In this document: positions 23,557 to 47,666 of the stretch, piece by piece
How the letters are laid out: each line of letters begins with the position of its first letter
Numbering within the stretch: the first letter of the stretch is position 1
NCBI GenBank assembly: GCA_965214095.1
Contig: OZ243938.1
Span: 576,001-640,000, forward strand
DNA length: 64,000 nt
Direction of reading: 5' to 3'
DNA from: Candidatus Poribacteria bacterium
GTDB lineage: Bacteria; Poribacteria; WGA-4E; WGA-3G
Notes under the pieces: model-generated
Databases searched by the model: none
The model's input: the letters and a program-made list of their open reading frames with translations, nothing else
Told to the model about the DNA's origin: nothing
Program-made: the position numbers and the translations under genes

Positions 23557-23988
23557 TTATTCCTTAGGCGATTCTATCTCTTCAATTGCAGTTTGTGCAC
23601 CTTGCCTCACAAGTGCCGAAGAGTCATTCTGAGCAAGTGCTTTTAGTCGTGTAAGACAATGTTCTGCTGCCAATTTTCCAAGCGCGACAGCAACAAAATA
23701 CCTCACGTCTGCGTCTTCATCGTCCAGTGCGTCAAGCAATGCATCAACATCTGAAGGACTTGCGATGTGTCGTTCAATGTCACCTATATTAATCAAAGCT
23801 TGTGCTGTAATCCGTCGAGTATGAATATCACCGTGTTTTAAAGAGGACAGCAATTCATCATTTCCATTGTTGATAGCAGACAAGTTATCCCAATCACAAT
23901 CTAAACAGAACCATGACTTTTCGTCTAACTTTTGCACATTAGCATGACCACATTGTGGACAAACTGCATACTCACTGGGTTGACTCAT
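23557..23988 (-). CDS. Zn-ribbon plus HEAT repeat protein
   Basis: CPQC...CLDC; LDDEDADVRYFVAVALG HEAT repeat. Confidence 0.78.
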   Translation of the reverse strand: MSQPSEYAVCPQCGHANVQKLDEKSWFCLDCDWDNLSAINNGNDELLSSLKHGDIHTRRITAQALINIGDIERHIASPSDVDALLDALDDEDADVRYFVAVALGKLAAEHCLTRLKALAQNDSSALVRQGAQTAIEEIESPKE

Positions 23989-24359
23989 GATGGTCCAATT
24001 GCCTCCATTTCAGGTAAATCTCTCCATATTTCTGGTCCCTCTGGTTTGAAATTTATAGTTGCGATGAACTGCATGCCGTGATAGAAATTGATCTTGAACT
24101 TACCACCACCAAAATGCTGTTTCAGATAGTCTAACGGAGCATCAATCAATGGACCCATTTCGTCCGCATAATAAAATGCAAGTGGTTTGAATCGCACTGT
24201 GTTTCCAACAGGTTCCTGCACTAAGAGTTGTGCGGAGGTTGCGGGAAATAGCACCTGAAAAGCATCCCACAAATCAGCGACTGTCGGATTCGGATTACCT
24301 ATACGCTTTTTGAAGTCGTTATCAAGATATTCAGAAAATGTGTTAAAAACCCAGTCCAT
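23985..24359 (-). CDS. Hypothetical protein
   Basis: 124-aa ORF translationally coupled (ATGA) to the HEAT gene. Confidence 0.7.
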   Translation of the reverse strand: MDWVFNTFSEYLDNDFKKRIGNPNPTVADLWDAFQVLFPATSAQLLVQEPVGNTVRFKPLAFYYADEMGPLIDAPLDYLKQHFGGGKFKINFYHGMQFIATINFKPEGPEIWRDLPEMEAIGPS

Positions 24360-24386
24360 AATGAAACCTTGTCAAGTAATAGCGAT

Positions 24387-24962
24387 TTATTGCTCTAAAT
24401 CCACGCGTCTATAAACTTCGTTTAAAGAAAGTTTGCATCCAATTGAGGAAAGTGTGAATGTCTCCTGAAGTTCTTGATATTCTTTTAATCTCCACTGAGT
24501 GCCTTGAATTCGATGATGTTCAACTTTAATCTTGTCTTGTGAAACGAGAATATATTCTTTTAAAGTGGCGATTTGTTTATAGTAATTGAACTTCTCTGTT
24601 CTGTCATATATCTCAGTTGAAGGTGAAAGCACCTCTATAATTACCACTGGGTTGAGAAGTGTATCAAAGGTATCATCCTCAAATTGTGATTCACCGCAGG
24701 CAATAACAACATCGGGATAGAAATATGATTCTGATTGACTTTCCTTGACACGCATGTCTCCTGAAAAAACTTCACAATCTCGGTCACGTAATTGGATATT
24801 TATCTCAGTTGCAATATCAAGTGTAATGTAATTATGTGCACGACTCGCACCCGACATTGCGAGTATCTCTCCTCTAAGATATTCACTCTTGAATGTTGCC
24901 TTGCGTTCTAAATATAGATATTCCTCAGGTGAATATATAGTTTGTGCTCCAAGAGATGACAT
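24387..24962 (-). CDS. Uma2 family endonuclease-fold protein
   Basis: EY..GEI.AM.GAS..H, YPDV, IEVLSPSTE.YDR. Confidence 0.9.
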   Translation of the reverse strand: MSSLGAQTIYSPEEYLYLERKATFKSEYLRGEILAMSGASRAHNYITLDIATEINIQLRDRDCEVFSGDMRVKESQSESYFYPDVVIACGESQFEDDTFDTLLNPVVIIEVLSPSTEIYDRTEKFNYYKQIATLKEYILVSQDKIKVEHHRIQGTQWRLKEYQELQETFTLSSIGCKLSLNEVYRRVDLEQ

Positions 24963-25103
24963 GGTTCCCTCCTTAAAGGATGATAATTTACATTACAAAT
25001 ATTCATTGAAACAACAGATAGAAATATTTTACATTCCAGGAGCCTTTAAGAAGTCCTTCCAATCAAAATCTGGCAGAGGGAACTCCTCTGTGGCTTTACA
25101 TTG

Positions 25104-25517
25104 TCAAAAGGTGGCGGCACTTTCAAAGAATTCTATATCAACACGTTCAATCTCTGCTGAACGTGCATTTTCAGCAACGCGTTGAACAACCATCTCTCGG
25201 ACAAACGGAATAGGAATACGTTTGACGCGGTGAACAACTTCCTCTGTGCATGGAACATTTGTGTTGTCAAGGTAAGGTCCATCATGTAACGGTGTTTCTG
25301 CAGGATGATCGCATGTCTCAGGAACAAGTTGCTGTAATCGCATTGAAACGTAATCTGTGACCCACTGTTGAAATTTTTCAGTGTTTTCAGTTTCAGGAAC
25401 ACTTGGTTGATTCGTCTGATCTAACTTTTCATTTATGTTGACAAGTAGGTTTTCTAATCGTCCCAATCGGTCTTCCACATTTGTGAGACGTTCTTGAACT
25501 TTCGTTTGATCGCTCAT
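25104..25517 (-). CDS. Coiled-coil plus PCP_red-like domain protein
   Basis: C-terminal TEEVVHRVKRIPIPFVREMVVQRVAENAR...VDIEFF. Confidence 0.7.
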   Translation of the reverse strand: MSDQTKVQERLTNVEDRLGRLENLLVNINEKLDQTNQPSVPETENTEKFQQWVTDYVSMRLQQLVPETCDHPAETPLHDGPYLDNTNVPCTEEVVHRVKRIPIPFVREMVVQRVAENARSAEIERVDIEFFESAATF

Positions 25518-25526
25518 GTTTCCTCC

Positions 25527-26246
25527 TTAGATTGTCCAATATTTCCATAGATCTTCCGGAATTTCGTATCTTATCTCTTCACGACGTTTATGATGATAGC
25601 GTGCAAATAGCCCAACTCGTGGGATGTCTCTGATATTGCCTGAACCTGTATGACACAAATATGCATGCCATAGCACGACATCACCCGCAGCTCCGATAAA
25701 CTCACGTGCTCCTTCTGGTGATGAATCAGAAAAAATATTCCAACCCCATCCCTCAATATCTCTAAAACTTCCATCAACCTGTTCAGGATATTTTAGGAAA
25801 TATTTGTGTGTTGTCCGATGGCTTTTTGGCCAAAACACGAAAGCACCACCACCCGGTTCAACATCATATAGATATGTGGTTGCACCCATCATGAATGGAC
25901 TCCAACCACCGGGACCGTAAGCATCAATGTGTCCGCTTCCAGGCAATGACCATTCTGCATCTGGGTTTGGCCATTTGACGAGAGGAGAACCCCCTCCGCC
26001 TGTAAATTCGCCTCCACTAAATTGCTGTATTATCGCTTGCATCTCCGGTAAATGTCCAAAGTTTGGAGAAAAACCGAAGTTTTCTACAACATAATTATCT
26101 GGCCATGTCTCTGGTGTTTCTAAACTGGAATTGAAATGCTTCCAAATCTGTTCACGCCAACCATTAATGACTTCTGTATCAATTAAGTTTTTAATAACCA
26201 GGTATCCGTTCTCTTGAAAAAACTCAACCTGTTTAGGTGCTAACAT
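25527..26246 (-). CDS. Phytanoyl-CoA dioxygenase (PhyH) family
   Basis: FFQENGYLV, GHIDAY (HxD), PKSH, AGDVVLWHAYLCH; start at ATG 26246. Confidence 0.85.
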   Translation of the reverse strand: MLAPKQVEFFQENGYLVIKNLIDTEVINGWREQIWKHFNSSLETPETWPDNYVVENFGFSPNFGHLPEMQAIIQQFSGGEFTGGGGSPLVKWPNPDAEWSLPGSGHIDAYGPGGWSPFMMGATTYLYDVEPGGGAFVFWPKSHRTTHKYFLKYPEQVDGSFRDIEGWGWNIFSDSSPEGAREFIGAAGDVVLWHAYLCHTGSGNIRDIPRVGLFARYHHKRREEIRYEIPEDLWKYWTI

Positions 26247-26313
26247 AAAAGTTTCCTCTATCGTCAAATGTTGTATTCGGGTAAAAGTCACTCCTACAGA
26301 AGAAATTACATAT

Positions 26314-27618
26314 CTAACTCTTAGGTCTGAAAGAGGGAATACCAGTCTTATCAAATCTGGATTTGACTGATTTCATAATTTCTGGAGTAATTTCCTGATA
26401 TCCGTGTTCACGCGCATATGTTTCAACACTCTTGACAACCATGCCACGCGCAAACGATGGCACACGTTTCAGTCTTTCTTCTGCAGCATCATTCCAAAGT
26501 AAATCGTAATCGGGTTCTGTGCCAAACGCTGTTCGTTTCTCAAGTTGTATAGGTTTATTGTCTCTTTGTCCTGGTTGGTATTCGCAAGATTCATCTGCTG
26601 CGAGATAGTTGCCAGTGGTAGCATAGGCACGTGCCCTACAACCACCGCATACTTCTTTAAATTCACATACCCCACATTTTCCCTCAAGCAAGTTCCGATT
26701 TCGTAATTCATCAAATGTTTCCGATTCATTCCACAGCTTGGAAAAACTTTCATCTTTAAGATTTCCAACGCTGACGGGAAGGTATGGACAAGGAGTCAAT
26801 TCACCTTCAGGACTAATGCGACAATAGTAGATACCACATGGACATGTGCCACTTGGATATCCCTGAAGGAATGCTGAGTCGGACTGCTGTTCATAAATGA
26901 CACGTTTGTAATGTGGTGCACATTTGGACGCAATAAGCATCTTCCCAATATAATCTTTCTGTAGTTTGAACATAGTATCCAGCATGTTCTCATATTGTTC
27001 TGGCGAGATGTCCATTACAGTCTTTCCTCTGCCTGTTCGGACGAGAAAATACAGATTTAGCACCTTTGCCCCTAACTGATATGCGAACTCAACGATCTTA
27101 GGAATTTCATCATAGTTCCACTGCGTAACTGATGTCTGTATAAGAAAATCAAGATGTGCGCGTTTAAGGGATTCTACCCCATTCATTGTCGCCTGCCATG
27201 CTCCCGGCATGCCACGAAACTTGTCATGTTCAGACGGTCGGATAGAATCTATACTTAATCCCGCTCCGGTTACACCGTGTTTTTGCATCTGCTCTACTAC
27301 ATCGTCATTGAGTAGCACACCGTTAGTTCCCATCACAACAAGAAAACCCGTATCCGATGCATATTTTGAAATCTCAAGAATATCTGGACGCAGCAACGGT
27401 TCCCCACCTGTAAGTATCAATAGGATATGAGGATTGATTTCCGCAATCTCATCAATAACGCGAAAGCATTCTGATTGTGTTAACTCAGATTCTCTGTGAT
27501 ACCCGTGCGGGAACTCGTCTGTGTCTACGAAACCCGCTGGTAGATAGCAGTGCATACATTTCAGATTACATAATCTGGTGATATTCCATGAGACTGCTTG
27601 AACTTTTGTTTTTTCCAT
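26314..27618 (-). CDS. Radical SAM/SPASM protein (AhbD/NirJ-like) with C-terminal PCP_red-like domain
   Basis: CNLKCMHC, TGGEPLLR, KCAPHY, SPASM GKCGVC...CGGCRARA; tail WNDAAEERLKRVPSFARGMV. Confidence 0.85.
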   Translation of the reverse strand: MEKTKVQAVSWNITRLCNLKCMHCYLPAGFVDTDEFPHGYHRESELTQSECFRVIDEIAEINPHILLILTGGEPLLRPDILEISKYASDTGFLVVMGTNGVLLNDDVVEQMQKHGVTGAGLSIDSIRPSEHDKFRGMPGAWQATMNGVESLKRAHLDFLIQTSVTQWNYDEIPKIVEFAYQLGAKVLNLYFLVRTGRGKTVMDISPEQYENMLDTMFKLQKDYIGKMLIASKCAPHYKRVIYEQQSDSAFLQGYPSGTCPCGIYYCRISPEGELTPCPYLPVSVGNLKDESFSKLWNESETFDELRNRNLLEGKCGVCEFKEVCGGCRARAYATTGNYLAADESCEYQPGQRDNKPIQLEKRTAFGTEPDYDLLWNDAAEERLKRVPSFARGMVVKSVETYAREHGYQEITPEIMKSVKSRFDKTGIPSFRPKS

Positions 27619-28077
27619 TTAATTTCTCAGTAGCAATGAAAGAGCAAAAACAACTGAACCCGATAACAGTGTTAGATATCCAAGAACATTGACATGTGTA
27701 GGTACAGTGATTGAACTGTCAGGCTCCACTGCTTCAAGGTGTTTGCGATATAATGAACTGTATAATCCCCAGCAAAGTGCCATAATGCCAAATGCTGCCA
27801 ATTTTGCTGCAGAATATATCATATACTCCGATTCTACTTGCATATTATTATTCCACGCAACAATGAAAATTACAATACCACCTGTCAATAGAATGATGTT
27901 TATTGTCAATCGCATTGCACCTTGAAAGCGATTGTGAATGTCTAACAACACATTTGCTTGGAGTTTTTTCTGGCCTAAAGGTATTGCTATGAAAGAATAA
28001 AAGAACACGCCTCCGAACCATAAGATTGCTGCGATTAGATGTATACATCGGAGGGAAAGTTCAACGACTTGGCGCAT
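27619..28077 (-). CDS. CopD/DUF4149-like four-TM membrane protein
   Basis: IHLIAAILWFGGVFF motif; 4 TMs. Confidence 0.65.
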   Translation of the reverse strand: MRQVVELSLRCIHLIAAILWFGGVFFYSFIAIPLGQKKLQANVLLDIHNRFQGAMRLTINIILLTGGIVIFIVAWNNNMQVESEYMIYSAAKLAAFGIMALCWGLYSSLYRKHLEAVEPDSSITVPTHVNVLGYLTLLSGSVVFALSLLLRN

Positions 28078-28119
28078 TGGTTGATATTGACTGGCTTATC
28101 CTTTTTATATTATATGAGA

Positions 28120-28434
28120 TTATACATCATCACATCTCTCATAAAAACTAACCCCATGAAGTTCAATTTGTGCTACCATATCTGGATTTCCTATTTTACT
28201 AAAATCGGATATGTCAATTGTATAGGGTAGAAGCAGATCATCAAGATCAAAGTCAATTTTAGTGAGTACGCTGTGTGTTAATCCTTCACCACAGAATGTT
28301 AGGTCAATGTCAGAGCCGTTTCGATATGTACCCGTTGCACGTGATCCATACAAAATTGCTTTATAAATCTGTGGATACTTTTGAAAGACACTATGTATTT
28401 TTTCAATAGTGCTGTCTGATAATCCGTATTTCAT
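28120..28434 (-). CDS. Minimal nucleotidyltransferase (MNT) antitoxin
   Basis: LYGSRATG...SDIDL...LPYTIDI. Confidence 0.88.
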   Translation of the reverse strand: MKYGLSDSTIEKIHSVFQKYPQIYKAILYGSRATGTYRNGSDIDLTFCGEGLTHSVLTKIDFDLDDLLLPYTIDISDFSKIGNPDMVAQIELHGVSFYERCDDV

Positions 28435-28439
28435 AAAAA

Positions 28440-28853
28440 CTATTCCTGTTCAAGTTGTTTTAATCTTGCTAACAACGTCTCAAACTCAGAGTAATAAATA
28501 TTGAGAATTGCCAATACCACCTCTTCTGCGGTATCTTCATTATATGTATGGGTTGTTAGATTACGATGTCGTATCATATCCATCCAGGCTTCTCCATTTT
28601 CGATTATTCCTTCTTTGAATGCTGCACGTGTTGTATCGCGAGAACCATAAAGTTTGAAATCTTGTGATTGAAGAAAATCCTTGAGGGTATTCCATGCTAA
28701 TTCATGAGTATATACAAATCCTTGTATCAAACCCTGGGCTTCTAAATCAGAGAGTTCCCGTTTCTTAGCAAGGTCTACAGCTTCCTTTAGTCGAGAAAAC
28801 GCTTTACGAAAACTATCAGCTCTCTGTTTCCAGCGGTTGGTAGGAAGGTTCAT
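28440..28853 (-). CDS. HEPN (HI0074-type) nucleotidyltransferase substrate-binding protein/toxin
   Basis: GLIQ..YTHELAW, RNLTTH (RX4H) followed by TYNE. Confidence 0.88.
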   Translation of the reverse strand: MNLPTNRWKQRADSFRKAFSRLKEAVDLAKKRELSDLEAQGLIQGFVYTHELAWNTLKDFLQSQDFKLYGSRDTTRAAFKEGIIENGEAWMDMIRHRNLTTHTYNEDTAEEVVLAILNIYYSEFETLLARLKQLEQE

Positions 28854-28911
28854 TGTGTACTCACATTTTATCTAAAATGAAACTGTATAGGATTTGAATA
28901 AGCGTTTAGAA

Positions 28912-29430
28912 CTACATTGGAAAGTTTCCGCGTGCTGCATCCATTACTTCAGCAGTAATTTCAGTATGTCCATTGTCTTTGGCAAAACCTTCAATTCCCA
29001 TTTTCGCCATCGGACGCACAAAACTTGGGATTCGCTCTAACCGTTCCAATGCTTCTGGAGTCCATTTTACTCCATCAGGTTCTGGTTCTGCTTGCTCCTC
29101 AAAAGCATCCGAGATAACTGAGGTAAAGGGACATTTACCGCCTTCTTCTGATTTGCTTATGTCTGTGTCAAAGGTAGTATCAGTCATCATATCTGGTTTA
29201 GAGGTCTCTAACTGTGAACGTATCAACTGCATTGGTTGAGCTGCAGCGTTACTTCCCCCGAGTTTCAGGTCTAAGGATTTCAACATCTGTGTTTCTGAAG
29301 GGTTTAGGAACATAGCAATCTCAGTGAAACACTCTGGACACTCAAATACTGCGGTGACAGATCCCTGTTCAGGTTGGGTTACGTCTTTGAATTTCATTGC
29401 CGTGTCGCAGTCTATACATAGGAATTTCAT
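28912..29430 (-). CDS. Zn-ribbon plus PCP_red-like domain protein
   Basis: CIDC...CPEC, GKCPF, WTPEALERLERIPSFVRPMAK. Confidence 0.78.
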   Translation of the reverse strand: MKFLCIDCDTAMKFKDVTQPEQGSVTAVFECPECFTEIAMFLNPSETQMLKSLDLKLGGSNAAAQPMQLIRSQLETSKPDMMTDTTFDTDISKSEEGGKCPFTSVISDAFEEQAEPEPDGVKWTPEALERLERIPSFVRPMAKMGIEGFAKDNGHTEITAEVMDAARGNFPM

Positions 29431-29466
29431 CTTCTCACTCCATTATTCTCTATAAATGCTAAAAAA

Positions 29467-30339
29467 CTAAATTTTGAAGAAATCTTGTATCTTCTGAGAT
29501 ACCTCTGATATGGATTTACTTGCTAAAGATTTCGGGTATTCGTGGACATAAGGTGTACCGTTGTCGTTACATAAAGACAACTTTGGATCGAAAGGTATCT
29601 TTCCAAGGAGCATTTGCTGAAACGATGTATCATCAGCAGAAAAGAGTTGTTCGTGTTCACCGCAGTGCTGGCATACATAGAATGCCATATTTTCAACAAC
29701 TCCAATGATTGGCACGTTGAGTATGTCACTTGCCATAGAAATAGATTTCTTTACGATCAGGTTTGACACATCGGAAGGAATGGTTACAACGACGACACCA
29801 CCGAGATTTGGAATGAGTTCAACAACATTTGGTAAACGATCAGAACCTGGTGGCAGATCAAGCAGTAGAAAATCTAACGCTCCCCAATCAGTGTCACCGA
29901 TAAACTCCCTTAATGCTCCTACTTCCATAGTGCTACGCCATGTGAATGCATCCTTTTGGGTGTGCGCGTTCCATAATACTGGTGCATCATCGTCTGATAG
30001 GAGTAGATCCATTGAAATGACTTTTGTACCGAGTGATGTTATAGCCGGTTTGACACCAGATTCAACATACTCAAGCGAGGTGTTTCGAACACCCATCATT
30101 TTGGCGATCGTAGGTCCGTTGATATCAGCATCAACAACACCGACAGCAAAACCAGATAATGTTAGGGCAGTCGCAAGGTTTACCGTTACAGCACTCTTTC
30201 CGACTCCTCCTTTTCCACTCATAATTGTGATGGTATGTTTCACCGATGCCAGGCGCGTACTGATTCGGTTCGCTTGTGCGGTGACTTGTCCAATTATGTT
30301 AGAACCTGCATCCTTTGGGAGTTCCTCGTAAGTTTTCAT
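29467..30339 (-). CDS. mrp: Mrp/NBP35/ApbC Fe-S carrier P-loop ATPase
   Basis: SGKGGVGKS, DADINGP, DLPPG, VENMA..CQHC. Confidence 0.88.
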   Translation of the reverse strand: MKTYEELPKDAGSNIIGQVTAQANRISTRLASVKHTITIMSGKGGVGKSAVTVNLATALTLSGFAVGVVDADINGPTIAKMMGVRNTSLEYVESGVKPAITSLGTKVISMDLLLSDDDAPVLWNAHTQKDAFTWRSTMEVGALREFIGDTDWGALDFLLLDLPPGSDRLPNVVELIPNLGGVVVVTIPSDVSNLIVKKSISMASDILNVPIIGVVENMAFYVCQHCGEHEQLFSADDTSFQQMLLGKIPFDPKLSLCNDNGTPYVHEYPKSLASKSISEVSQKIQDFFKI

Positions 30340-31610
30340 TCTATCTTGCCGATTGCATACAAGGCATCATAACTCCGTAAATAGAGAGTGCCATCAGCAA
30401 CAATAGGTGATGCAGCAACGGCTTCATCTATTGAATTGGTCGCCACGACTTCAAATTCGCGTCCTGCCTTAACAACTGTGACAACACCGTCACGAGCTGT
30501 TAGGTAGATATTGCCATTAGCATAGACAGGTGAAGATCGATGACGATGGTTATGTGTTCGTTCCTCATAGAGTTTTTCACCTGTTTTGGCATCAAGACAG
30601 ATAAGTACACCGTTTTCTCGGCAAAGGTAGACTAAGCCATCGTGAATAAGTGGGGATGGCACATCAGGCGTTCCACGTCCAAGTTTCCATATCTGCCATT
30701 CGCTTTCCGTTATGTCACCTTGACCAGATGGGTCTAAACCCAGTACAGGACCATTTTTTGCCGATGGAACAACTATGAGTCCTTCAGTTGCTACTGGAGA
30801 GGCAACGAGTCGGAAGGAAGTATTATACCTTTGTTTAGCGTTTAGTCCACCACATCGCCAAATCTCACTACCATCATCAAGACTATGTGCGGTAACATAA
30901 TCTGCACCATGAACAATGAGTAATTCTCTCTCTGCATCTTTATATAATATTGGCGAGGTGTATGCATGTTCACATTCTGCCCTTGCGTCACTTTTCCTGT
31001 CGTGCATCCATATCTCTTCACCTGTCATCTTATCAAGTGCAAGAACTAACCATGCGTTGCTGTGGATGAGTTGAAGGTATAATCTGTCTTTGTATAGCAG
31101 CGGAGTCATTGACATCAGGAAACCGAGTCTAAAATTACCATATCGTTCCTCAATATTTGTCTTCCATATACTATTTCCTTCAAAATCGTAGCAAACAAGA
31201 TCCCCTGTTCCGAGAAATGCCCAAACATATTTACCATCGGTTGTGGGAGAAGGAGCAGCATAGTTGACTTCATCGCCTCGTTTAGTACGATTGCCTTCTG
31301 CTAATGTGCGTTTCCATAATTCTTCGCCATCTGTGTTGATACACATCAGAACTAATTCCATGCCATCTGCACATGTCAGAAAAATCTTATCATTCCAAAC
31401 AACAGGAGTAGATGCGCCTTCACCCGGTAATGGAAGTCTCCAACGTACATTCTCAGTCTGACTCCACTGAATTGGCACATCAGTTTCATTGCTGATTCCG
31501 TCATTGTTTGCCCCTCTCCACTGATGCCAGTTTTCAGAAAAACAGTCATCTATTGGTATGAGAGATAATATAAGGATTATAACCAAATTACTGATTAACA
31601 GTTTCCGCAT
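30336..31610 (-). CDS. Secreted PQQ-binding-like beta-propeller protein
   Basis: Signal peptide, NWHQWRG, repeated SP/TP...W blades; start at ATG 31610. Confidence 0.82.
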   Translation of the reverse strand: MRKLLISNLVIILILSLIPIDDCFSENWHQWRGANNDGISNETDVPIQWSQTENVRWRLPLPGEGASTPVVWNDKIFLTCADGMELVLMCINTDGEELWKRTLAEGNRTKRGDEVNYAAPSPTTDGKYVWAFLGTGDLVCYDFEGNSIWKTNIEERYGNFRLGFLMSMTPLLYKDRLYLQLIHSNAWLVLALDKMTGEEIWMHDRKSDARAECEHAYTSPILYKDAERELLIVHGADYVTAHSLDDGSEIWRCGGLNAKQRYNTSFRLVASPVATEGLIVVPSAKNGPVLGLDPSGQGDITESEWQIWKLGRGTPDVPSPLIHDGLVYLCRENGVLICLDAKTGEKLYEERTHNHRHRSSPVYANGNIYLTARDGVVTVVKAGREFEVVATNSIDEAVAASPIVADGTLYLRSYDALYAIGKIE

Positions 31611-31773
31611 GATATTCCTCCATTTTCTCGGAATGCAAATAAAAGTAACTATTTCATTGTCTCTACCTTCGTCTATTTGTATATTTGTCACCTAACTTTT
31701 ACCTTGATTATGTTTATATTAAGATAGCATATTCTGAATGAATATGCTATGTATTTGTTGTATATTATAGTGA

Positions 31774-31876
31774 TATAGTGAATTATAAATATAAGTTAAC
31801 ACTTTCACCCCACGGTAGGCGAGGTTTCCTAACCTCGCTGATGCAGAGTGTTCAAGTAATTTCAAAATCTACCATA
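31774..31876. mobile_element. IS630-type MITE with GTAG REP-like hairpin
   Basis: TATAGTGAATT...ACCATA; GTAGGCGAGGTTTCCTAACCTCGC; near-identical to 43759-43860. Confidence 0.7.
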
Positions 31877-31895
31877 AATCAGATACGATTTCGAT

Positions 31896-33806
31896 TTATT
31901 CTGTATTTTCTGGTTGTTCAACTTGATAGTACTCACCTAACACTTCATTAGCAAGACTTCTCCCATCTTCAATGACCCGTGCAGCGAAATCTAGAGATAT
32001 TTGCGTGATGTCATTTTCTTGTGCGCGCTGTTCAATGCGAGTTTGTGTAATATTCCGCATAAAACCTGCTGGCACAAGATTCAACCGCTCAATCGCATCA
32101 TCTGTCCATTTCAATGAACTTACAAAGTCTTCAGATGGAGTAGAATCTTGGGTTTCGTTTTGTGTTTGTAATGCTTTGAGTTCTGGAGCATCCTCCCGAA
32201 CAGCGGCTGCTTCCCCCATACTATCGTCAATGATTTCCATAGCGAAAGCATTTGTGATTGTGTTTATCTTTTGTGACCGAGCAGATTTTTCAATTCGCGC
32301 TTTGACATTACGTCGCATATAGCCGCGTGGGACAGTACGTAGTGCTTTCTTTGACTGCTCAGACCATTGCAATCGGATACCGTCGAATGTCTCCACTTCA
32401 TCAGCACCACCCTCGTCAATTGCAATGTTATCAAGTGAATCTTTATCAACCATCTGGAAACGTTCTGGTGGTGAACTACAGACAGGACATTTGACAGGTT
32501 GTTCGTTGTGGGCAGCGTATCCGCATTCACCGCATATATATGTCTGTACTGCATCTGATTCTAAGACCTTCTGTTCCGCGATTTCCTTCGCAACTCTTGT
32601 GAGTTTCTCAGATGCGCGTTGCGGCATAATCGCTTCCATCGCCTTGTCAATAACACTTTCAGTAATAACTGAATGCCCACGCTCAATGGCAAAACGGTGA
32701 ACAGCGGTTTTAGCTATACCCCGCACCAAAGGAGGTGCTTTCTCCATGCGATCCATTGCTTCCTGTGTCCAAACAAGGGTTTCTTCAGCTTTTACGTCAA
32801 TCTGAGGGAAATAACGTTGGCTTGAAAGCATGATATTACATGGAGCAAGACGTAGGAGATTCTCTGCGGTGCTGCCTATGTCAGAATCTTGTTCATTATG
32901 GACACCGATTCTTCCAATAACAAGTAGCCAGGGATTGGTTTTACGAGTGTATTGCAATATTTTTTCGTAGGCTTTTCCATCAAGAAGGGTGATTTTTAGT
33001 TGATAGTCGTGTTCTTCCTTTGCTATTGAACGTGCAACCTCAAGGTGGGATTGGTATATTTTAGCAAGACCGGTATCTATTACCTCTTCGTGTAATTGTT
33101 CCTGCTCTTTGAATCTGAAAGTTCTTGCTGCGCGTTCAGTGAGAACATTCACAACAGAGTTGAAGACGATGTAGTGGAGATAAGGGTCGTAGACACCAAC
33201 TGCTTCCACTTGCCTGTTGAATTTCTGACCGAGTTGTATAGCAGTTTTCAATCCAGAAAAAGACTCTGGACTTCCATCAATTCCAACAAGTATATTTCCA
33301 TTTTGTTGATTAACTGAGTTAAGATCTCTAACAACAAGTGTATCCGTTGTTATCCGACGTACAACACGTTCACAGACTCCACCGATTAGGCTGTCCTTTA
33401 CTGCACCCATACCGAGTGCACCCATAATTACCAAATCGTAATCGCTTTCCTGAATATCCTCAACAAGCTTAATGTAGTGCTTACCTTCAGGCATCTTCGG
33501 TTCAAATGGTATGTTAAGTTTTTCACACTTATGTTTCATTACCTCAAGATATGAATCTGAGATAAGTTGTAGTCCCATAGTAATGAGAGTGTCGTGAATG
33601 CGACGTTGCTTTTCAAGTTCTACTTCGTCCTGATATTCTTCTGGTAAAGTATATTCCATCTGTTTGAAGCGAACATCATGCATTTTCGCTGCATAAACGT
33701 GGGAACCGACCAATTGAGATTCAAATTTCTTTGCGAATTCAACCGCTAAATCAATACTTACATCAGAATAGTCTGAATTATCAACCGGAACATATATTTT
33801 TTTCAT
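31896..33806 (-). CDS. Tandem universal stress protein with rubredoxin-like and three PCP_red-like domains
   Basis: IYVPVDNS...DLVIMGALG and ILVGIDGS USP domains; CGEC...CPVC; three W[TS]..A..R....P..[VM]R repeats. Confidence 0.85.
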   Translation of the reverse strand: MKKIYVPVDNSDYSDVSIDLAVEFAKKFESQLVGSHVYAAKMHDVRFKQMEYTLPEEYQDEVELEKQRRIHDTLITMGLQLISDSYLEVMKHKCEKLNIPFEPKMPEGKHYIKLVEDIQESDYDLVIMGALGMGAVKDSLIGGVCERVVRRITTDTLVVRDLNSVNQQNGNILVGIDGSPESFSGLKTAIQLGQKFNRQVEAVGVYDPYLHYIVFNSVVNVLTERAARTFRFKEQEQLHEEVIDTGLAKIYQSHLEVARSIAKEEHDYQLKITLLDGKAYEKILQYTRKTNPWLLVIGRIGVHNEQDSDIGSTAENLLRLAPCNIMLSSQRYFPQIDVKAEETLVWTQEAMDRMEKAPPLVRGIAKTAVHRFAIERGHSVITESVIDKAMEAIMPQRASEKLTRVAKEIAEQKVLESDAVQTYICGECGYAAHNEQPVKCPVCSSPPERFQMVDKDSLDNIAIDEGGADEVETFDGIRLQWSEQSKKALRTVPRGYMRRNVKARIEKSARSQKINTITNAFAMEIIDDSMGEAAAVREDAPELKALQTQNETQDSTPSEDFVSSLKWTDDAIERLNLVPAGFMRNITQTRIEQRAQENDITQISLDFAARVIEDGRSLANEVLGEYYQVEQPENTE

Positions 33807-33839: not shown

Positions 33840-34103
33840 TTATCGCGTCTGAACATTATCACACGGTTTGAAACGAGAACCAACATATCCTCCGACAATA
33901 TGAGCAATCAGAACTGCAGGCCATAAGTAAATCAAAGCGGTTTGCCAATCCCAGTGAAGGATAAAACGTCTGACAAGAATGTTAAGCACAATTGGTATAT
34001 ATAGACACCTGCTCCAAGGACGACTGAATTTTTTGTAACGAACCCGATAAAATCCAAATGGAAAATGAACCAGAAAGGCAATAAAGGAAACTATTAGGTT
34101 CAT
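33840..34103 (-). CDS. Small membrane protein
   Basis: 87 aa, 3 TMs, co-directional in the cluster. Confidence 0.6.
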   Translation of the reverse strand: MNLIVSFIAFLVHFPFGFYRVRYKKFSRPWSRCLYIPIVLNILVRRFILHWDWQTALIYLWPAVLIAHIVGGYVGSRFKPCDNVQTR

Positions 34104-34110: not shown

Positions 34111-34743
34111 CTATTTATGAAGTGTTTTCATATCCTTACGAAGTTTCGTCATTGCTGCTTCACTGTGGCTATCGTAATAACCGTAAATGTCTCCATTTGG
34201 AGCAACGAGAACAAACTTTCTACTATGTGGAAACACACCTTCATGTTGTGCAGCGGCTAATTTAAATCCGTTATTTGCCAATTGATAAATCTGATCCTTC
34301 TCACCAGTCAGAAAATGCCAGGTTTTTTCATCTGCTCCATAACGTTCAGCATAATTCGCAAGCACTTCTGATGTATCACGTTCTGGGTCAACGGTAAAGG
34401 AAACGAAGTTCACATCAGAGGAACTAAACTCTGATTGCAATGTTGCCATCTCTTTTGTCATTATAGGACAAATTGTAGGACAATTGGTAAAAATAAAATC
34501 CGCTACCCAGACTTTACCAGATAAATCAGACAAACTTATTTCGTCTCTCTGTTGGTTCGTCAATGTAAATTCTGGGACACTTGCGATTAGTTTCTCAGAA
34601 TCAGATTCATCTTTATTTTCAAACATTAACCACAAATTGAATAGTGCAATACTGATGATAATTAATCCTAATACAACCCAAGGAAGTGTGGATTTATCAA
34701 GTTTACGCCGCTTGGACTCAAGATTACTTTTCTGATGTTCCAT
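34111..34743 (-). CDS. SCO/SenC copper chaperone
   Basis: FIFTNCPTICP (CxxxC), VDPERDT, conserved His (PHS). Confidence 0.92.
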   Translation of the reverse strand: MEHQKSNLESKRRKLDKSTLPWVVLGLIIISIALFNLWLMFENKDESDSEKLIASVPEFTLTNQQRDEISLSDLSGKVWVADFIFTNCPTICPIMTKEMATLQSEFSSSDVNFVSFTVDPERDTSEVLANYAERYGADEKTWHFLTGEKDQIYQLANNGFKLAAAQHEGVFPHSRKFVLVAPNGDIYGYYDSHSEAAMTKLRKDMKTLHK

Positions 34744-34785
34744 ACTCTTTGTGTCTACTATTGATGGATTGTATTGCTACTTACC

Positions 34786-35124
34786 CTAATTCGGTGTGGT
34801 CTCAACGACCTTTTCAACAGGTTTTTCAATTGCATTGTGACGCGCATCTGTTGTCAAGTCAGGCATTAACATAATAACAAGGAAGACGCAGATGACAAAT
34901 GGTGTAATCACAATTGCAGATAAAGTGCGTTTTTCCAGATTTAGATGCATAAAATACGCAGCGACTAAGAATGCTTTACCGCAAGCCAATCCAATGAGTA
35001 GGATCGCTTTGATAACGGTCGAATACTCAGGTATTGCAACACCAACCTCAATGGCAGTTAACACAGTAAGCCACAAAAAAATAAACCAATACCTTGTATG
35101 TTTATGTTCTCCGTTCTGAGCCAT
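34786..35124 (-). CDS. Cytochrome c oxidase subunit IV family
   Basis: LTAIEV...KAFLVAAYFMHL motif. Confidence 0.85.
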   Translation of the reverse strand: MAQNGEHKHTRYWFIFLWLTVLTAIEVGVAIPEYSTVIKAILLIGLACGKAFLVAAYFMHLNLEKRTLSAIVITPFVICVFLVIMLMPDLTTDARHNAIEKPVEKVVETTPN

Positions 35125-35134
35125 TAATCTCCTC

Positions 35135-35794
35135 CTATAATAAATAGATAAATGTGAAAACCATGATCCAGATAAGATCTACAAAGTGCCAATAGAGTCC
35201 AACAATTTCTACTTCATGGTTAAATTCAGCAGTATATCTCCCACGCAGACCATGGATCAGGATAACTATCAGATATATTACACCACCAGTTACATGCAAT
35301 CCGTGGAATCCAGTGATAGCATAGAAAGTGGGACCAAACAGAGTAGAACCACTAATTGCAGCACCTGATAGTCCATGGTCTGGAATACCTGTCAAAGTTA
35401 ATCCGTGTTTGATTAGATGTGTCCATTCATACACTTGCAATCCAAGAAAAATAACACCACCTAAAATTGTTAATCCAAGATACATACACATCCGAGAGAC
35501 GTTACCCTTCTGAATTGACTCTAATGATTTAACCATAGTAACACTGCTGCAAATCAACAGAAATGTCATACCAGCGGTCAGATTTATGCCAAGAATCTCA
35601 CTGGGTGTCACCCATCCGACTACGCCTGCTCCAGCTCTGAGTGCTGCATAAGCCGCGAGCAAAGCACCAAATGACATGGTATCGCCAATGAGGAATATCC
35701 ACATGCCGAGTTTGCCAAGACTATCTGGTGTAAGCGATGGTTCGTATACGTCTTCAGTATGTTCTAAAGTGGTAGCTTGTTCCACTATACTCAA
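35135..35794 (-). CDS. ctaE: Heme-copper oxidase subunit III (short form)
   Basis: KLGMWIFL, TFLLICSS, ITGFHGLHV, GLYWHFVDLIW. Confidence 0.9.
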   Translation of the reverse strand: MSIVEQATTLEHTEDVYEPSLTPDSLGKLGMWIFLIGDTMSFGALLAAYAALRAGAGVVGWVTPSEILGINLTAGMTFLLICSSVTMVKSLESIQKGNVSRMCMYLGLTILGGVIFLGLQVYEWTHLIKHGLTLTGIPDHGLSGAAISGSTLFGPTFYAITGFHGLHVTGGVIYLIVILIHGLRGRYTAEFNHEVEIVGLYWHFVDLIWIMVFTFIYLL

Positions 35795-35887
35795 CTCCTT
35801 TATTATTGTTATACCTATTTTATTCTCATATAACTACATATTTCAATTGCAATTATTACCGATTTACTTCTATCAACAATTGCGTAT

Positions 35888-36983: not shown

Positions 36984-36994
36984 TAAAGTCTCCT

Positions 36995-37570: not shown

Positions 37571-37584
37571 ACCACGTTATACCA

Positions 37585-37863: not shown

Positions 37864-37874
37864 ATTGACTCCAT

Positions 37875-38807: not shown

Positions 38808-38811
38808 AATG

Positions 38812-39756: not shown

Positions 39757-39807
39757 TTTTTATTTAGCATAACTATCTCATATAACTAATTTTTGTTGCT
39801 TCGTCTA

Positions 39808-47664: not shown

Positions 47665-47666
47665 GA

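Follow-up and report, generated by a model that had tools for sequence, protein, structure and literature searches.

Outside the locus described here, the PCP_red domain (Pfam PF08369) is known from the tetrapyrrole enzyme BchB. A phmmer comparison with PDB sequences matches it to the C-termini of BchB and ChlB chains and to a stand-alone protein, Asr4154, and the accessible part of the literature on BchB contained no statement on the role of this C-terminal domain. AhbD and NirJ2 remodel the side chains of iron tetrapyrroles, and a review, in its accessible part, presents AhbD as able to replace ChdC in the coproporphyrin pathway. We found no published description of a PCP_red helper system of OR-N oxidases. 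In the poribacterial DNA analysed here (the window, a stretch of 64,000 nucleotides), PCP_red is carried instead by a radical SAM enzyme and by USP, Zn-ribbon and coiled-coil proteins, all encoded close to oxidase genes (Table 1).

Table 1. Oxidase genes and PCP_red cluster genes in the window
Feature	Coordinates	Strand	Length	Evidence
Zn-ribbon + HEAT-repeat protein, cluster distal end	23557..23988	-	143 aa	HEAT_2 43.9 bits; in 3/4 other-family genomes
Conserved protein, cluster distal end	23985..24359	-	124 aa	no Pfam/NCBIfam match
Coiled-coil + degenerate PCP_red protein	25104..25517	-	137 aa	PCP_red 22.2 bits, below cutoff
Radical SAM/SPASM enzyme, C-terminal PCP_red	26314..27618	-	434 aa	Radical_SAM 81.1, SPASM 33.8, PCP_red 55.5 bits
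CopD/HemJ-superfamily-like small membrane protein	27619..28077	-	152 aa	sub-cutoff Pfam: CopD 21.6, Urate_ox_N 21.2, UPF0093 (HemJ) 17.6 bits
Zn-ribbon + linker (GGKCPF) + PCP_red protein	28912..29430	-	172 aa	PCP_red 64.7 bits
Cluster-type Mrp/NBP35-family P-loop ATPase, specialised paralogue	29467..30339	-	290 aa	PF10609 232.1 bits
PQQ_2/BamB-like beta-propeller protein, one N-terminal hydrophobic segment	30336..31691	-	451 aa	PQQ_2 83.6 bits
USP-USP-PCP_red-rubredoxin-like-PCP_red-PCP_red protein	31896..33806	-	636 aa	Usp 112.9, PCP_red x3 94.0 (total), RUBY_RBDX 22.8 bits
Protein with two hydrophobic segments, between SCO1 and USP gene	33840..34103	-	87 aa	no family match; in 3/4 other-family genomes
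A-type heme-copper oxidase operon: COX2, COX1, CtaA, CtaB, two COX3-like, COX4, SCO1	34111..42883	-		COX1 501 bits; CtaD 617 bits
bd-like module partners: 513-aa dihaem c, 258-aa monohaem c, 576-aa dihaem c + EB_dh, CarboxypepD_reg-domain protein	44998..50014	-		Pfam + CxxCH counts
bd-like (OR-N-type) CydA homologue	50030..51976	-	648 aa	Cyt_bd_oxida_I 66.8 bits, residues 65-342

PCP_red domains and the proteins that carry them

A preliminary description of the window had proposed six PCP_red-like domains distributed over four proteins, and Pfam hmmscan matched PF08369 at all six places. The coiled-coil copy (E 1.5e-4) falls short of the gathering score of 32.5 bits, and an alignment of all six copies, which regained the motif originally reported, shows that it has also lost the leading Trp; it had rightly been called the more degenerate one. 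A six-frame search of the whole genome (5,245,196 bases) detected no copy of PF08369 beyond these six. The open frames with matches span 140–641 aa, so none of them is BchB-sized. The preliminary description gives this domain, as the tail of BchB/ChlB, a putative contact with the Fe protein of DPOR, on which the accessible part of the literature on BchB is silent. In the AF2 models of the radical SAM enzyme and the USP protein the PCP_red units hang on low-confidence linkers.

No other partner of the radical SAM enzyme is as widespread as the tandem-USP protein, whose full-length orthologues, at 600–740 bits, include sequences from Acidobacteriota, Bacteroidota, Methylomirabilota, Nitrospira and Rhodothermales. 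Its AF2 model (pLDDT 75.1, pTM 0.51) has two confident USP domains, for which the top Foldseek matches are the ATP-binding tandem USPs Rv2623 and TTHA0350, and an ATP-type glycine motif can be read by eye in the alignment of these domains. All 28 sequences compared have histidines 36, 43, 71, 211, 239 and 303, and 22 of them keep the four rubredoxin-like cysteines.

The Mrp protein reaches neither NCBIfam equivalog (MrpORP 227.7 bits, cutoff 450; ApbC 163 bits, cutoff 348), does not have the FeS_assembly_P N-domain and shares 36% identity with the second Mrp of the genome. Its Walker A motif GKGGVGKS is invariant, and 17 of 23 sequences have a CxxC. A 12-residue insertion (residues 123–134) distinguishes it from both the second Mrp and a housekeeping Mrp of Nitrospina. 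Six loci, belonging to five taxon groups, show a 4-bp overlap of the Mrp stop with the start of the Zn-ribbon-PCP_red gene, and Cys5, 8, 31 and 34 of the Zn-ribbon-PCP_red protein are kept in 19–20 of 20 sequences. A complex of an Mrp dimer with this protein was predicted with an ipSAE of 0.63, compared to 0.00 for the best of three controls; the runs share at least 75% of contacts, and the pLDDT of the partner is 64 or higher. Of 80 solved complexes, 58 attained this ipSAE mark, as did 2 of 110 mismatched pairs; these counts are only a rough guide for the Mrp complex, which was predicted with its own alignments and two Mrp copies. The predicted interface involves, on the Mrp side, the N-terminal segment and the 12-residue insertion, both specific to the cluster-type Mrp, and on the partner side residues 1–79, which form the Zn-ribbon half and lie outside PCP_red. 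Of the earlier suggestion that PCP_red is a shared docking tag, the presence of the tag on each component stands, while the prediction lends no support to PCP_red as the element that docks to Mrp. The Zn-ribbon-PCP_red protein is a putative adaptor that would hang PCP_red on Mrp.

The CopD/HemJ-like protein, common to Poribacteria and Nitrospira, has an invariant His in its first transmembrane segment and an invariant W-x-G-G motif in 14 sequences (the window, seven Poribacteria and six Nitrospira loci). Its gene adjoins that of the radical SAM enzyme in 11 of the 14 and lies about 0.55 kb upstream in two loci (L034 and L040); L020 is outside this count. The remaining genes are more restricted. 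Orthologues of the coiled-coil protein are 66–72% identical in 4/4 Poribacteria genomes of other families, and among 80 loci surveyed this protein occurs in Poribacteria only. The conserved 124-aa protein is 74–81% identical in three of these four genomes and matches a single Rhodothermales locus, at 92 bits; its best Atlas score of 0.80 is a lead only. The PQQ_2/BamB-like gene is lineage-specific, being present in two of the four genomes and in none of the non-poribacterial loci surveyed. Small unassigned membrane ORFs lie at 33840–34103, 36747–37052 and 37585–37863. Of the other genes, PhyH (25527–26354), Uma2 (24387–24962) and the MNT/HepT pair (28120–28853), which lie inside the span originally put forward, and a DNA methylase (35888–36757) are missing from the syntenic clusters of all four other-family genomes and were therefore placed outside the conserved core. 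At the RNA level, contigs from four metatranscriptome libraries, all from a single study, span and connect the cluster genes of a relative at approximately 90–95% identity; DNA carry-over may contribute to them.

A radical SAM enzyme related to AhbD and NirJ2

Catalysis in the system is presumed to centre on the radical SAM enzyme, which had been likened to AhbD and NirJ. Its best NCBIfam models are indeed AhbD (327.7 bits) and NirJ2 (309.8 bits), both under the cutoff of 500 bits that applies to each, compared with approximately 80–130 bits for most listed peptide-maturase models. All 33 sequences compared have cysteines 17, 21, 24, 233, 259, 277, 315, 318, 324, 327 and 345. The AF2 model (pLDDT 88.8) has a three-helix tail at residues 377–424; in one family representative, P0142, a HATPase_c domain takes the place of the PCP_red tail. 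Among the solved folds closest to the model are PqqE (8.8e-18), SkfB, CteB, SuiB and anSME; none of the matches listed bears an AhbD or NirJ name, and the fold ranking therefore cannot discriminate between the families.

In the tree, the sequences with a PCP_red tail form a clade of their own (SH-aLRT 97), separate from the AhbD-like clade. The enzyme is the only AhbD-like one in the genome, in which no AhbC-like radical SAM enzyme was found and which encodes a ferrochelatase and a Chlor_dismutase-family protein, a candidate ChdC. In four of four related Poribacteria (f4) searched, which have COX1 and no bd-like CydA, no AhbD-like enzyme was found (best score 53 bits vs 332 in the positive control). 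Such sequence comparisons establish the family placement and the cluster-binding cysteines, and on the same grounds the enzyme belongs to a distinct AhbD/NirJ2-related clade and is not simply the housekeeping AhbD of the genome. Its identity between poribacterial families is 75–78%, compared to 71–77% for COX1; together with the invariant cysteines, this fits an enzyme under strong constraint.

Association with the bd-like oxidase

The bd-like CydA has approximately 12–15 hydrophobic segments, no CxxCH and no NCBIfam match, and its partner genes are kept beside it in other phyla. The heme-copper oxidase operon separates the bd-like module from the PCP_red cluster, and the order of the operon and the cluster is identical in 4/4 Poribacteria genomes of other families. 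The cluster had been placed directly downstream of the oxidase genes; in Poribacteria this is true of the heme-copper operon, but not of the bd-like CydA gene, which in the window is approximately 16 kb further away.

The co-occurrence with the bd-like module that the preliminary description anticipated was found both among neighbouring genes and in presence or absence across genomes. PF08369 is present in 36/36 Poribacteria genomes with the bd-like gene and 0/5 without it. The corresponding numbers are 32/32 and 4/89 in Gemmatimonadota, and 8/8 (6/6 without the unpublished G220 and G318) and 1/143 in Acidobacteriota; the counts for these two phyla ignore kinship, such that the positives may represent few clades and independence is overstated. 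Among the Gemmatimonadota lacking the bd-like gene, G121, G134 and G146 have 71–73-bit matches in frames of 569, 143 and 596 aa, respectively, which are taken to be BchB, and the matches in G095 are close to a contig end. All of ten further genomes, picked because the fetched locus had no bd-like gene, proved to contain bd-like CydA.

The core of radical SAM, USP, Mrp and Zn-ribbon-PCP_red proteins is shared by a dozen lineages or more and often lies next to a bd-like CydA/cytochrome c module. At least one partner lies within approximately 10 kb in 50 of 67 tailed radical SAM loci (USP in 41, Mrp in 22, Zn-ribbon-PCP_red in 21, bd-like CydA in 19), and none of nine truly untailed AhbD-like loci has any partner gene. 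The adjacency is not universal, as 17 of the 67, including all six Nitrospina loci, have no partner gene in the flank. In Nitrospira, a gene encoding a protein with two PCP_red domains is flanked by a DUF420 gene and a CydA-like gene. Carriers of the radical SAM enzyme include anammox bacteria and Nitrospina, organisms of low-oxygen life. The tie between the PCP_red gene set and the bd-like oxidase across phyla is well supported; the same distribution would arise from co-transfer of one large island in which only some genes are coupled.

Possible functions of the PCP_red gene set

The radical SAM enzyme could be an oxygen-independent coproheme decarboxylase, equivalent to AhbD, that provides heme b for the whole cell and is supported or regulated by the PCP_red, USP and Mrp proteins, the set being inherited with a low-oxygen oxidase through shared lifestyle. 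AhbD being the top-scoring model, the lack of a second AhbD-like enzyme, the ability of AhbD to stand in for ChdC (stated in the accessible part of the review) and the anammox and Nitrospina carriers agree with this possibility. We nevertheless consider it unlikely, given that the AhbD score is below cutoff and nearly equalled by NirJ2, that the tailed clade is separate, that a ferrochelatase and a candidate ChdC are already present, that no such enzyme was found in the four f4 Poribacteria, which keep a heme-copper oxidase, and that no PCP_red was found in 85 Gemmatimonadota and 142 Acidobacteriota genomes (of 89 and 143, respectively) lacking the bd-like gene; in several phyla the genes also lie right next to the bd-like module, which exceeds what shared lifestyle would produce. 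It is quite improbable that the enzyme is instead a protein or peptide maturase, to which PCP_red recruits a substrate (a bd-like subunit or a small peptide) for cross-linking or another modification. The nearest solved folds, with PqqE as the first-named, are peptide-modifying SPASM enzymes and the cluster does contain small membrane ORFs, but the fold ranking is undiscriminating, the sequence groups with AhbD and NirJ2, and unbiased clustering of 80 loci gave no small ORF beside the radical SAM gene that is conserved across phyla.

The ATP-type motif and fold matches of the USP domains, the rubredoxin-like site and the HATPase_c domain of P0142 would suit a mainly regulatory set, in which USP, knuckle and PCP_red act as sensors of ATP, redox state or oxygen and govern the assembly or activity of the oxidases, with the radical SAM enzyme in a sensing or minor role. 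The full retention of its cluster cysteines and a conservation at least equal to that of COX1 make this very unlikely, and an Mrp paralogue reserved for the system and paired with an adaptor suits cofactor supply better than signalling. Service to the adjoining A-type heme-copper oxidase, by assembly of heme a or the copper centre and with an incidental link to the bd-like gene, would explain why the cluster comes immediately after COX4-SCO1 in the window as well as in 4/4 other-family Poribacteria, and why COX operons lie near it in Gemmatimonadota, Acidobacteriota, Bacteroidota and Methylomirabilota. However, 5/5 f4 Poribacteria have COX1 (approximately 50% identity) and neither PCP_red nor the bd-like gene, COX1 is absent near 14 tailed Nitrospira and five alphaproteobacterial loci, and it occurs in 13 of 67 tailed-locus flanks vs 19 for the bd-like gene; we regard this explanation as highly implausible.

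We favour, with a probability of about 50%, the interpretation that the region codes for a dedicated cytoplasmic accessory system of the OR-N-type CydA module, most likely tailoring or supplying the heme cofactor of the oxidase. The preliminary description staked its proposal on three points, and on each the outcome is in its favour: the repeats match PCP_red, the gene set accompanies the bd-like module across genomes, and the radical SAM enzyme is set apart from housekeeping AhbD. The scores above 300 bits for AhbD and NirJ2, the presence of PCP_red in BchB, the invariant His of the CopD/HemJ-like protein and the Nitrospira arrangement of 2xPCP_red, DUF420 and CydA-like genes together point to a tetrapyrrole theme, and family resemblance suggests that a heme or metal cofactor is made or modified. 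In such an accessory system the radical SAM enzyme may use SAM and three Fe-S clusters to yield a modified iron tetrapyrrole (coproheme, heme b or a derivative), with the specialised Mrp possibly loading or repairing its clusters. The N-terminal half of the Zn-ribbon protein would hold Mrp and present a free PCP_red, as the controlled prediction and the overlapping genes suggest. It is possible that the tandem-USP protein, with its ATP-type motifs, four-cysteine knuckle and three tethered PCP_red units, serves as a scaffold, an ATP-dependent gate or an electron donor, and that PCP_red, a three-helix module on flexible linkers, gathers the components or directs them to a common target. In Poribacteria and Nitrospira, the CopD/HemJ-like membrane protein may then carry the product to the membrane oxidase.

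PCP_red proteins and their gene neighbourhood

The preliminary description had read a motif recurring in four neighbouring proteins as six copies of the PCP_red domain (PF08369), and this observation is confirmed by Pfam matches, a genome-wide search, the shared motif and phmmer links. Three copies lie in the 636-aa USP protein (94.0 bits in total; 47.5, 33.0 and 32.1–32.5 bits singly), and single copies in the 172-aa Zn-ribbon protein (64.7 bits), the 434-aa radical SAM enzyme (55.5 bits) and the 137-aa coiled-coil protein. Five of the six reach the gathering score of 32.5 bits; the last, at 22.2–23.8 bits, falls below it. Alignment of the six copies reproduces the motif, with the leading Trp lost only in the coiled-coil protein. 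A six-frame search of the entire 5.2-Mb Candidatus Poribacteria genome returned exactly six PF08369 matches, in frames of 140–641 aa, and no PCP_red frame of BchB size.

By phmmer, the domain matches the C-termini of the DPOR subunit BchB (2xdq_B, 4.4e-5) and the cyanobacterial stand-alone protein Asr4154 (2l09_A), which carry the same Pfam domain. BchB and ChlB, which have BchN and BchL as partners, possess a nitrogenase-like core that the window proteins lack; the BchB/ChlB equivalog models match only their last 55–70 residues, at 40–58 bits against cutoffs of 490–912. With no such core N-terminal to PCP_red, identity as BchB/ChlB was rejected. PCP_red is distributed here among four unrelated proteins, with putatively flexible linkers in the models. 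In DPOR, the BchB C-terminal region reaches over to the other half of the NB tetramer. The accessible parts of the DPOR literature yielded no statement about the function of this domain, and searches for 'PCP_red' and 'PF08369' returned nothing relevant.

According to Pfam annotation, the window contains a single long array of respiratory genes, all on the minus strand (see table). The heme-copper oxidase operon, the bd-like module and the genes at 53393–59054 together form this one-strand array, in which Rieske and a split cytochrome b are encoded upstream of the bd-like module. The PCP_red cluster had been described as directly following oxidase genes and serving a bd-like oxidase; the oxidase directly upstream of it turned out to be of the heme-copper type. 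In four genomes from two other families of the same order, the conserved order is ABC, ABC, COX2, COX1, CtaA, CtaB, COX3, small ORF, COX3, COX4, SCO1, (87-aa ORF), USP protein with three PCP_red domains, (PQQ_2 propeller, in two of the four), Mrp, Zn-ribbon-PCP_red, CopD-like, radical SAM-PCP_red and coiled-coil-PCP_red, ending distally, in three of the four, with the 124-aa and HEAT proteins. Across families the USP protein and the radical SAM enzyme are 75–78% identical, compared with 71–77% for COX1. For the 124-aa protein, an Atlas search gave scores of 0.76–0.80, which serve as leads only.

Features of the window and their positions
Feature	Position	Strand	Remarks
151-aa ORF, Peptidase_C14, Prok-JAB and 768-aa proteins	17645-22413	+	151-aa ORF and 768-aa protein without family match; Peptidase_C14 caspase-like (47 bits); Prok-JAB 72.4 bits
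HEAT protein	23557-23988		
124-aa protein	23985-24359		
Uma2-family putative endonuclease	24387-24962	-	inserted in PCP_red cluster
Coiled-coil-PCP_red protein	25104-25517		
PhyH-family gene	25527-26354	-	2-oxoglutarate/Fe(II) oxygenase-like; between radical SAM and coiled-coil-PCP_red genes
Radical SAM-PCP_red enzyme	26314-27618		
CopD-like membrane protein	27619-28077	-	152 aa
MNT-type nucleotidyltransferase and HepT/NTase_sub_bind protein	28120-28853	-	Polbeta 59.9 bits; HepT/NTase_sub_bind 137 bits
Zn-ribbon-PCP_red protein	28912-29430		
Mrp	29467-30339		
USP protein with three PCP_red domains	31896-33806		
87-aa ORF	33840-34103		
Heme-copper oxidase operon	34111-42883	-	A-type, complete, with CtaA, CtaB, SCO1
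N6/N4 DNA methylase	35888-36757	-	inserted between two COX3-like genes
ABC transporter		-	between bd-like module and heme-copper oxidase operon in the array's listed order
Three cytochrome c genes	45934-50014	-	after bd-like CydA; one fused to EB_dh
bd-like CydA homologue	50030-51976	-	
Cytochrome c, 1046 aa	53393-56533	-	eight CxxCH
Rieske/cytochrome b genes	56823-59054	-	

Not everything in the span belongs to the core that had been described as one system, as PhyH, Uma2, the MNT/HepT pair and the DNA methylase are each found in 0/4 of the syntenic clusters of other families. MNT/HepT, a pair resembling a toxin-antitoxin system that separates the Zn-ribbon-PCP_red gene from the CopD-like gene, recurs in one further poribacterial locus (L024). 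PhyH occupies the same position in five poribacterial loci (L023, L024, L025, L034 and L040, the last with two copies) and might represent an oxygen-dependent component that particular lineages have added to the system. The methylase and Uma2 inserts show that genes have moved locally into an array of otherwise constant order, and so do the inserts specific to the window as a whole (MNT/HepT, Uma2, methylase). We also considered that a mobile island merely carries the cluster along, but rejected such hitch-hiking as a full explanation because the core is kept across families where these inserts are absent. Beyond the distal end, the 768-aa protein and a neighbouring GFO/IDH/MocA oxidoreductase are kept beside the cluster in several poribacterial loci.

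Contigs of a relative, approximately 90–95% identical, are present in four metatranscriptome libraries of a single study; they cover 21–25 of 30 bins between 23500 and 43000 and bridge neighbouring genes (e.g., 28922–31529), with 0.07–0.09 of the sampled words present in the four runs; such contigs show no level, strand, transcript ends or operon structure, the libraries may contain DNA, and uncovered parts are uninformative.

Co-occurrence with bd-like CydA

Many phyla contain bd-like oxidases of the OR-N type, which presumably act as terminal oxidases in a wide range of bacteria; in the nitrite oxidisers Nitrospira and Nitrospina they are regarded as the principal oxygen-reducing enzymes. 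The CydA homologue in the window, a candidate member of this type, matches Cyt_bd_oxida_I with 66.8 bits over residues 65–342 only, and a crude hydropathy scan gives about 12–15 hydrophobic segments. The OR-N family of the cytochrome bd superfamily was defined by Murali et al. (bioRxiv 10.1101/2021.01.16.426971), in the accessible part of that preprint by homology to the CydA N-terminus, absence of the quinol-binding Q-loop and 10–14 helices.

With the radical SAM enzyme as query, 50%-identity representatives were searched exhaustively, which gave 1,140 proteins at E ≤ 1e-30. The top-ranked relatives are 40–49% identical, with alignments extending through the PCP_red tail, and Radical_SAM, SPASM and one to four PCP_red domains are present in 25 of the 29 top representatives scanned; named members of the family belong to Binatia, Nitrospinota and Nitrosomonadales. 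Scanning one genome per species gave 80 loci, in Nitrospinaceae, anammox Planctomycetota, Nitrospira, Zetaproteobacteria, Acidobacteriota, Gemmatimonadota, Methylomirabilota, Anaerolineales, Alpha-, Beta- and Gammaproteobacteria, Bacteroidota, Rhodothermales, Myxococcota and Poribacteria, together with untailed archaeal AhbD-like genes. When ORFs were searched with the window proteins, at least one partner was found within ~10 kb in 50 of the 67 loci whose radical SAM enzyme carries a C-terminal PCP_red domain ("tailed"): the USP-PCP_red protein in 41, Mrp in 22, Zn-ribbon-PCP_red in 21, bd-like CydA in 19, an EB_dh cytochrome in 17 and COX1 in 13. The 17 tailed loci with no partner in the flank, several of them short, include 6/6 Nitrospina loci. 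Four of the 13 remaining loci belong to the family but are truncated by a contig end or frame, and these have partners; no partner accompanies any of the nine loci with a truly untailed enzyme, of which seven are archaeal and one each comes from Syntrophales and Planctomycetia. Clustering all ORFs of the 80 loci without the window as reference recovered the same families.

At the level of whole genomes, the same 36 of 41 Poribacteria are positive for both PF08369 and bd-like CydA, and the other five, all from a fourth family, are negative for both and contain COX1 (~50% identity). PCP_red is present in all 32 of 121 Gemmatimonadota with bd-like CydA and in all eight of 151 Acidobacteriota with that gene (6/6 without G220 and G318, two genomes flagged as unpublished), in samples whose internal kinship is not disclosed and whose genomes are not independent observations. 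Four additional Gemmatimonadota genomes have PCP_red without bd-like CydA: the matches of 71–73 bits in G121, G134 and G146 (frames of 569, 143 and 596 aa, respectively) are probably DPOR BchB of phototrophs, and those in G095 lie close to a contig end. One extra Acidobacteriota genome, G290, has a single PCP_red match. In ten genomes whose radical SAM locus had shown no bd-like CydA in its flank (Nitrospina, Nitrospira, Brocadia, two Alphaproteobacteria, two Methylomirabilota, a Zetaproteobacterium, an Anaerolineales and an Acidobacteriota genome), the whole-genome search found the gene in 10/10, several times within a few kb of the locus. A functional link is the simplest reading because three phyla agree and the genes are directly adjacent in many lineages. 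We regard the link as well supported, and functional coupling of the PCP_red gene set with the bd-like oxidase module as very probable. In five relatives of the same genus (G002, G003, G010, G020, G024), the bd-like CydA match contains one in-frame stop (TAA or TGA), which could precede the genuine start codon or indicate that the gene is disrupted.

PCP_red copies number 11 in a Nitrospira genome (G044), six in a Nitrospina genome (G043) and five in a Brocadia genome (G045), including stand-alone proteins with two or three copies and one radical SAM enzyme with three. In Nitrospira, the gene for a protein with two PCP_red domains is flanked by those of a DUF420 membrane protein and a CydA-like protein; DUF420 is connected with CtaM and heme A synthase in the accessible part of one paper. 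The locus concerned (L092; G044, C58:1-14000) encodes, in order, an O-methyltransferase, the DUF420 protein, the protein with two PCP_red domains, a 353-aa protein of no assigned family, a CydA-like protein, two FGE-sulfatase-domain proteins and a second CydA-like protein, and thus represents a different set of PCP_red neighbours beside bd-like oxidase genes.

OR-N oxidases are called uncharacterised or 'enigmatic', and experimentally unconfirmed, in the accessible text of PMC12342949 (Nitrospirales), PMC10839748 (Nitrospinota) and PMC3578206 (Nitrospina gracilis genome). That text contains no occurrence of 'radical SAM' or 'universal stress' in any of the three papers, nor of 'protochlorophyllide' in the first two, and 'radical SAM' does not occur in the accessible main text of bioRxiv 10.1101/2021.01.16.426971. 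Searches combining bd-like, radical SAM and Nitrospira found no literature, and AhbD is not mentioned among the nitrifier and anammox papers listed. No prior description of the gene set was found in the accessible parts of these sources, whose supplementary operon figures or tables may list the neighbours.

Properties of the component proteins

Radical_SAM (81.1 bits) and SPASM (33.8 bits; the Cys-rich domain for auxiliary clusters) matches place the radical SAM enzyme in its superfamily. The best-scoring curated NCBIfam families are AhbD (TIGR04545, 327.7 bits) and NirJ2 (TIGR04055, 309.8 bits), both below the equivalog cutoff of 500 bits that applies to each. Seven tailed relatives score about 270–350 bits on these models, and 270–329 bits on AhbD; among untailed relatives many reach 380–470 bits on AhbD and one exceeds the NirJ2 cutoff. 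In a quick maximum-likelihood IQ-TREE search with 57 rows and support given as SH-aLRT rather than bootstrap, all 20 tailed rows fall into one 22-row clade (SH-aLRT 97) on the NirJ2-like side, separate from an AhbD-like clade of 22 rows (SH-aLRT 95), and the window enzyme is not placed inside the AhbD clade. AhbD (heme b synthase), NirJ and NirJ2 all belong to the radical SAM/SPASM enzymes and act on iron tetrapyrroles, whose propionate side chains they remodel. AhbD and NirJ2 share with the window enzyme both domains, the invariant CxxxCxxC and eight further invariant Cys, all of which (the motif as Cys17/21/24) are conserved in 33/33 sequences. Unlike AhbD and NirJ, the tailed enzymes carry one to four C-terminal PCP_red domains, form a separate clade and have oxidase genes rather than ahb or nir genes as neighbours. 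The AF2 model (pLDDT 88.8, pTM 0.80) has a SPASM-type core, followed by a low-confidence linker and a three-helix PCP_red tail. In one 504-aa family representative (P0142), a histidine-kinase-type HATPase_c domain replaces the tail, and at a Brocadia locus (L095) a radical SAM gene with three PCP_red domains is followed by a sensor histidine kinase gene.

Mrp was compared with PF10609, NF008669 and NF041136. It has the features of an Fe-S carrier ATPase, namely the P-loop domain (PF10609, 232.1 bits), an invariant deviant Walker A motif GKGGVGKS and the CxxC for a bridging cluster, present in 17/23 sequences. Within the Mrp/ApbC/NBP35 carriers its best NCBIfam model is that of MrpORP, known from Desulfovibrio, and it stays below equivalog level for both MrpORP (227.7 bits, cutoff 450) and ApbC (163 bits, cutoff 348). 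The cluster-type Mrp differs from housekeeping Mrp in having a short N-terminal segment instead of the FeS_assembly_P N-domain and a 12-residue insertion (123–134) absent from the housekeeping paralogues. Its gene partner encodes the Zn-ribbon-PCP_red protein, whose start overlaps the Mrp stop by 4 bp in each of six loci, drawn from five taxon groups; Nitrospina, too, has an Mrp-like/PCP_red gene pair, which is detached. For the Zn-ribbon protein, all homologues among the matches listed are close kin, at least 75% identical.

Complex prediction for an Mrp dimer with this small protein gave an ipSAE of 0.63, compared with 0.00 for the best of three controls, a mark reached by 58/80 solved complexes and 2/110 mismatched pairs in a calibration that is only rough here, where our own alignments and two Mrp copies were used. 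At least 75% of contacts are shared between the runs, the partner pLDDT is at least 64, and the predicted complex supports binding. On the small protein, the predicted interface comprises residues 1–79 (the Zn ribbon and the next conserved stretch) and not PCP_red (123–167); on Mrp it comprises residues 1–25 and 88–149, where the cluster-type Mrp differs from its housekeeping paralogues. Because the modelled interface avoids PCP_red and uses the Mrp-specific surface, the small protein looks like an adaptor that would equip Mrp with a free PCP_red domain.

The USP protein (Usp, 112.9 bits) matches the fold of 3cis over residues 1–330 (Foldseek, 2.9e-17), and its N-terminal half matches ATP-binding tandem USPs, including ATP-bound TTHA0350. 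In the AF2 model (pLDDT 75.1, pTM 0.51), both USP domains are confidently predicted and contain long helical insertions, and low-confidence linkers lie between the PCP_red units. An alignment read by eye has G129, G132, G142, G301 and G311 invariant and G298 nearly so, in the pattern G-2x-G-9x-G-[ST] that with the fold defines ATP-binding USPs; the final position of the USP1 motif is Gly or Ser. By fold and motif, the protein thus fits the ATP-binding type, as judged from its sequence. It shares the fold of residues 1–330 with the tandem USPs Rv2623, TTHA0350 and UspE, but differs from them in a helical insertion per domain with invariant His, Asp, Glu and Arg, a rubredoxin-like knuckle and the three PCP_red domains. 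Six His in the USP domains are invariant in 28/28 sequences, and the four rubredoxin-like Cys are present in 22/28. With ~50% identity between phyla the protein seems, in our judgement and without comparison to other USPs, unusually conserved for a USP. The insertions contain similar motifs, H-V-Y-A-A-K-M-H-D-x-R-F-K-Q-M-E (residues 30–75) and D-P-Y-L-H-Y...F-R-F-K-E-Q-E-Q-L-H-E-E (205–255), with invariant His, Asp, Glu, Arg and Gln in 28/28 sequences from many phyla; from this conservation pattern they look less like something common to USPs than like a site for a ligand or metal.

The CopD-like membrane protein scores below the gathering cutoffs of both UPF0093/HemJ (PF03653, 17.6 vs 34.2 bits) and CopD (PF05425, 21.6 vs 32.1 bits), and is a member of neither by that measure; a weak Urate_ox_N match is also under its cutoff. 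Proteins of the HemJ/CopD superfamily, which it matches weakly, are small heme- or copper-related membrane proteins, and a TM1 His with W-x-G-G is typical of them. An invariant TM1 His followed by W-x-G-G is found in the window, seven Poribacteria and six Nitrospira loci, in most of which the gene adjoins that of the radical SAM enzyme, and the conserved His keeps a distant HemJ/CopD relationship open.

Possible function of the gene set

We estimate at about one half the probability that the set is a maturation system dedicated to heme or tetrapyrroles. Several features together argue for this reading: the closest characterised relatives of the radical SAM enzyme remodel iron tetrapyrroles, PCP_red has its origin in an enzyme of tetrapyrrole metabolism, the radical SAM gene of two phyla has a heme-type membrane protein encoded next to it, and the set as a whole is surrounded by heme proteins. 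The radical SAM enzyme would be the catalyst, Mrp and its adaptor would load it with Fe-S clusters, the USP/rubredoxin protein might act as scaffold, gate or electron donor, and PCP_red would be the tether that gathers the components.

The radical SAM enzyme is the sole AhbD/NirJ-like enzyme in the genome, and could in principle be a general oxygen-independent heme b synthase. The next best match in the genome scores 42.7 bits, and no partner resembling AhbC, which like the siroheme decarboxylase AhbA/B belongs to the pathway of AhbD, was found. The genome carries ferrochelatase and a 250-aa Chlor_dismutase-family protein that could be ChdC; a PF03653 search at E ≤ 0.001 found no HemJ. In the fourth poribacterial family an AhbD-like enzyme was found in 0/4 genomes searched (best match 53 bits, against 332 bits for the positive control). 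Because the enzyme forms its own clade, was found in none of those four genomes and coexists with ferrochelatase and the possible ChdC, it tracks the bd-like module and not heme supply generally, and we consider the general synthase unlikely. Those same four genomes do carry heme-copper oxidase, and a helper of heme-copper oxidase, the type encoded next to the cluster in the window, is the least probable of the alternatives. The case for a protein or peptide maturase comes from structure, the nearest solved folds by Foldseek being PqqE, SkfB, CteB, SuiB and anSME; since AhbD- and NirJ-named entries are absent among the matches listed, this comparison cannot separate tetrapyrrole from peptide substrates, and with tetrapyrrole enzymes as the nearest characterised relatives we find such a role rather improbable. 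That a set built around a SPASM-type enzyme is mainly a regulatory module seems to us more improbable still.

Within a maturation system for heme, a more specific, bolder and quite tentative proposal is that the tailed enzyme makes a so far unknown modified heme, which would be the oxygen-reducing centre of the OR-N bd-like oxidases. PCP_red would then be a module for handling or handing off tetrapyrroles, through which the radical SAM enzyme, its private Fe-S loader (Mrp and adaptor) and an ATP-gated USP/rubredoxin scaffold would form one machine. On this view, DPOR would hold a photosynthetic relative of this module in the tail of BchB.

With this gene set, PCP_red is seen in a first context outside photosynthesis, and a specialised paralogue of Mrp is recognised together with a putative adaptor protein of its own. 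Four strictly co-occurring cytoplasmic proteins around a tetrapyrrole-type radical SAM enzyme could account, in a testable way, for a possible need of OR-N oxidases for a special cofactor or a dedicated assembly line, and the set names candidates for co-expression to obtain an active OR-N oxidase.
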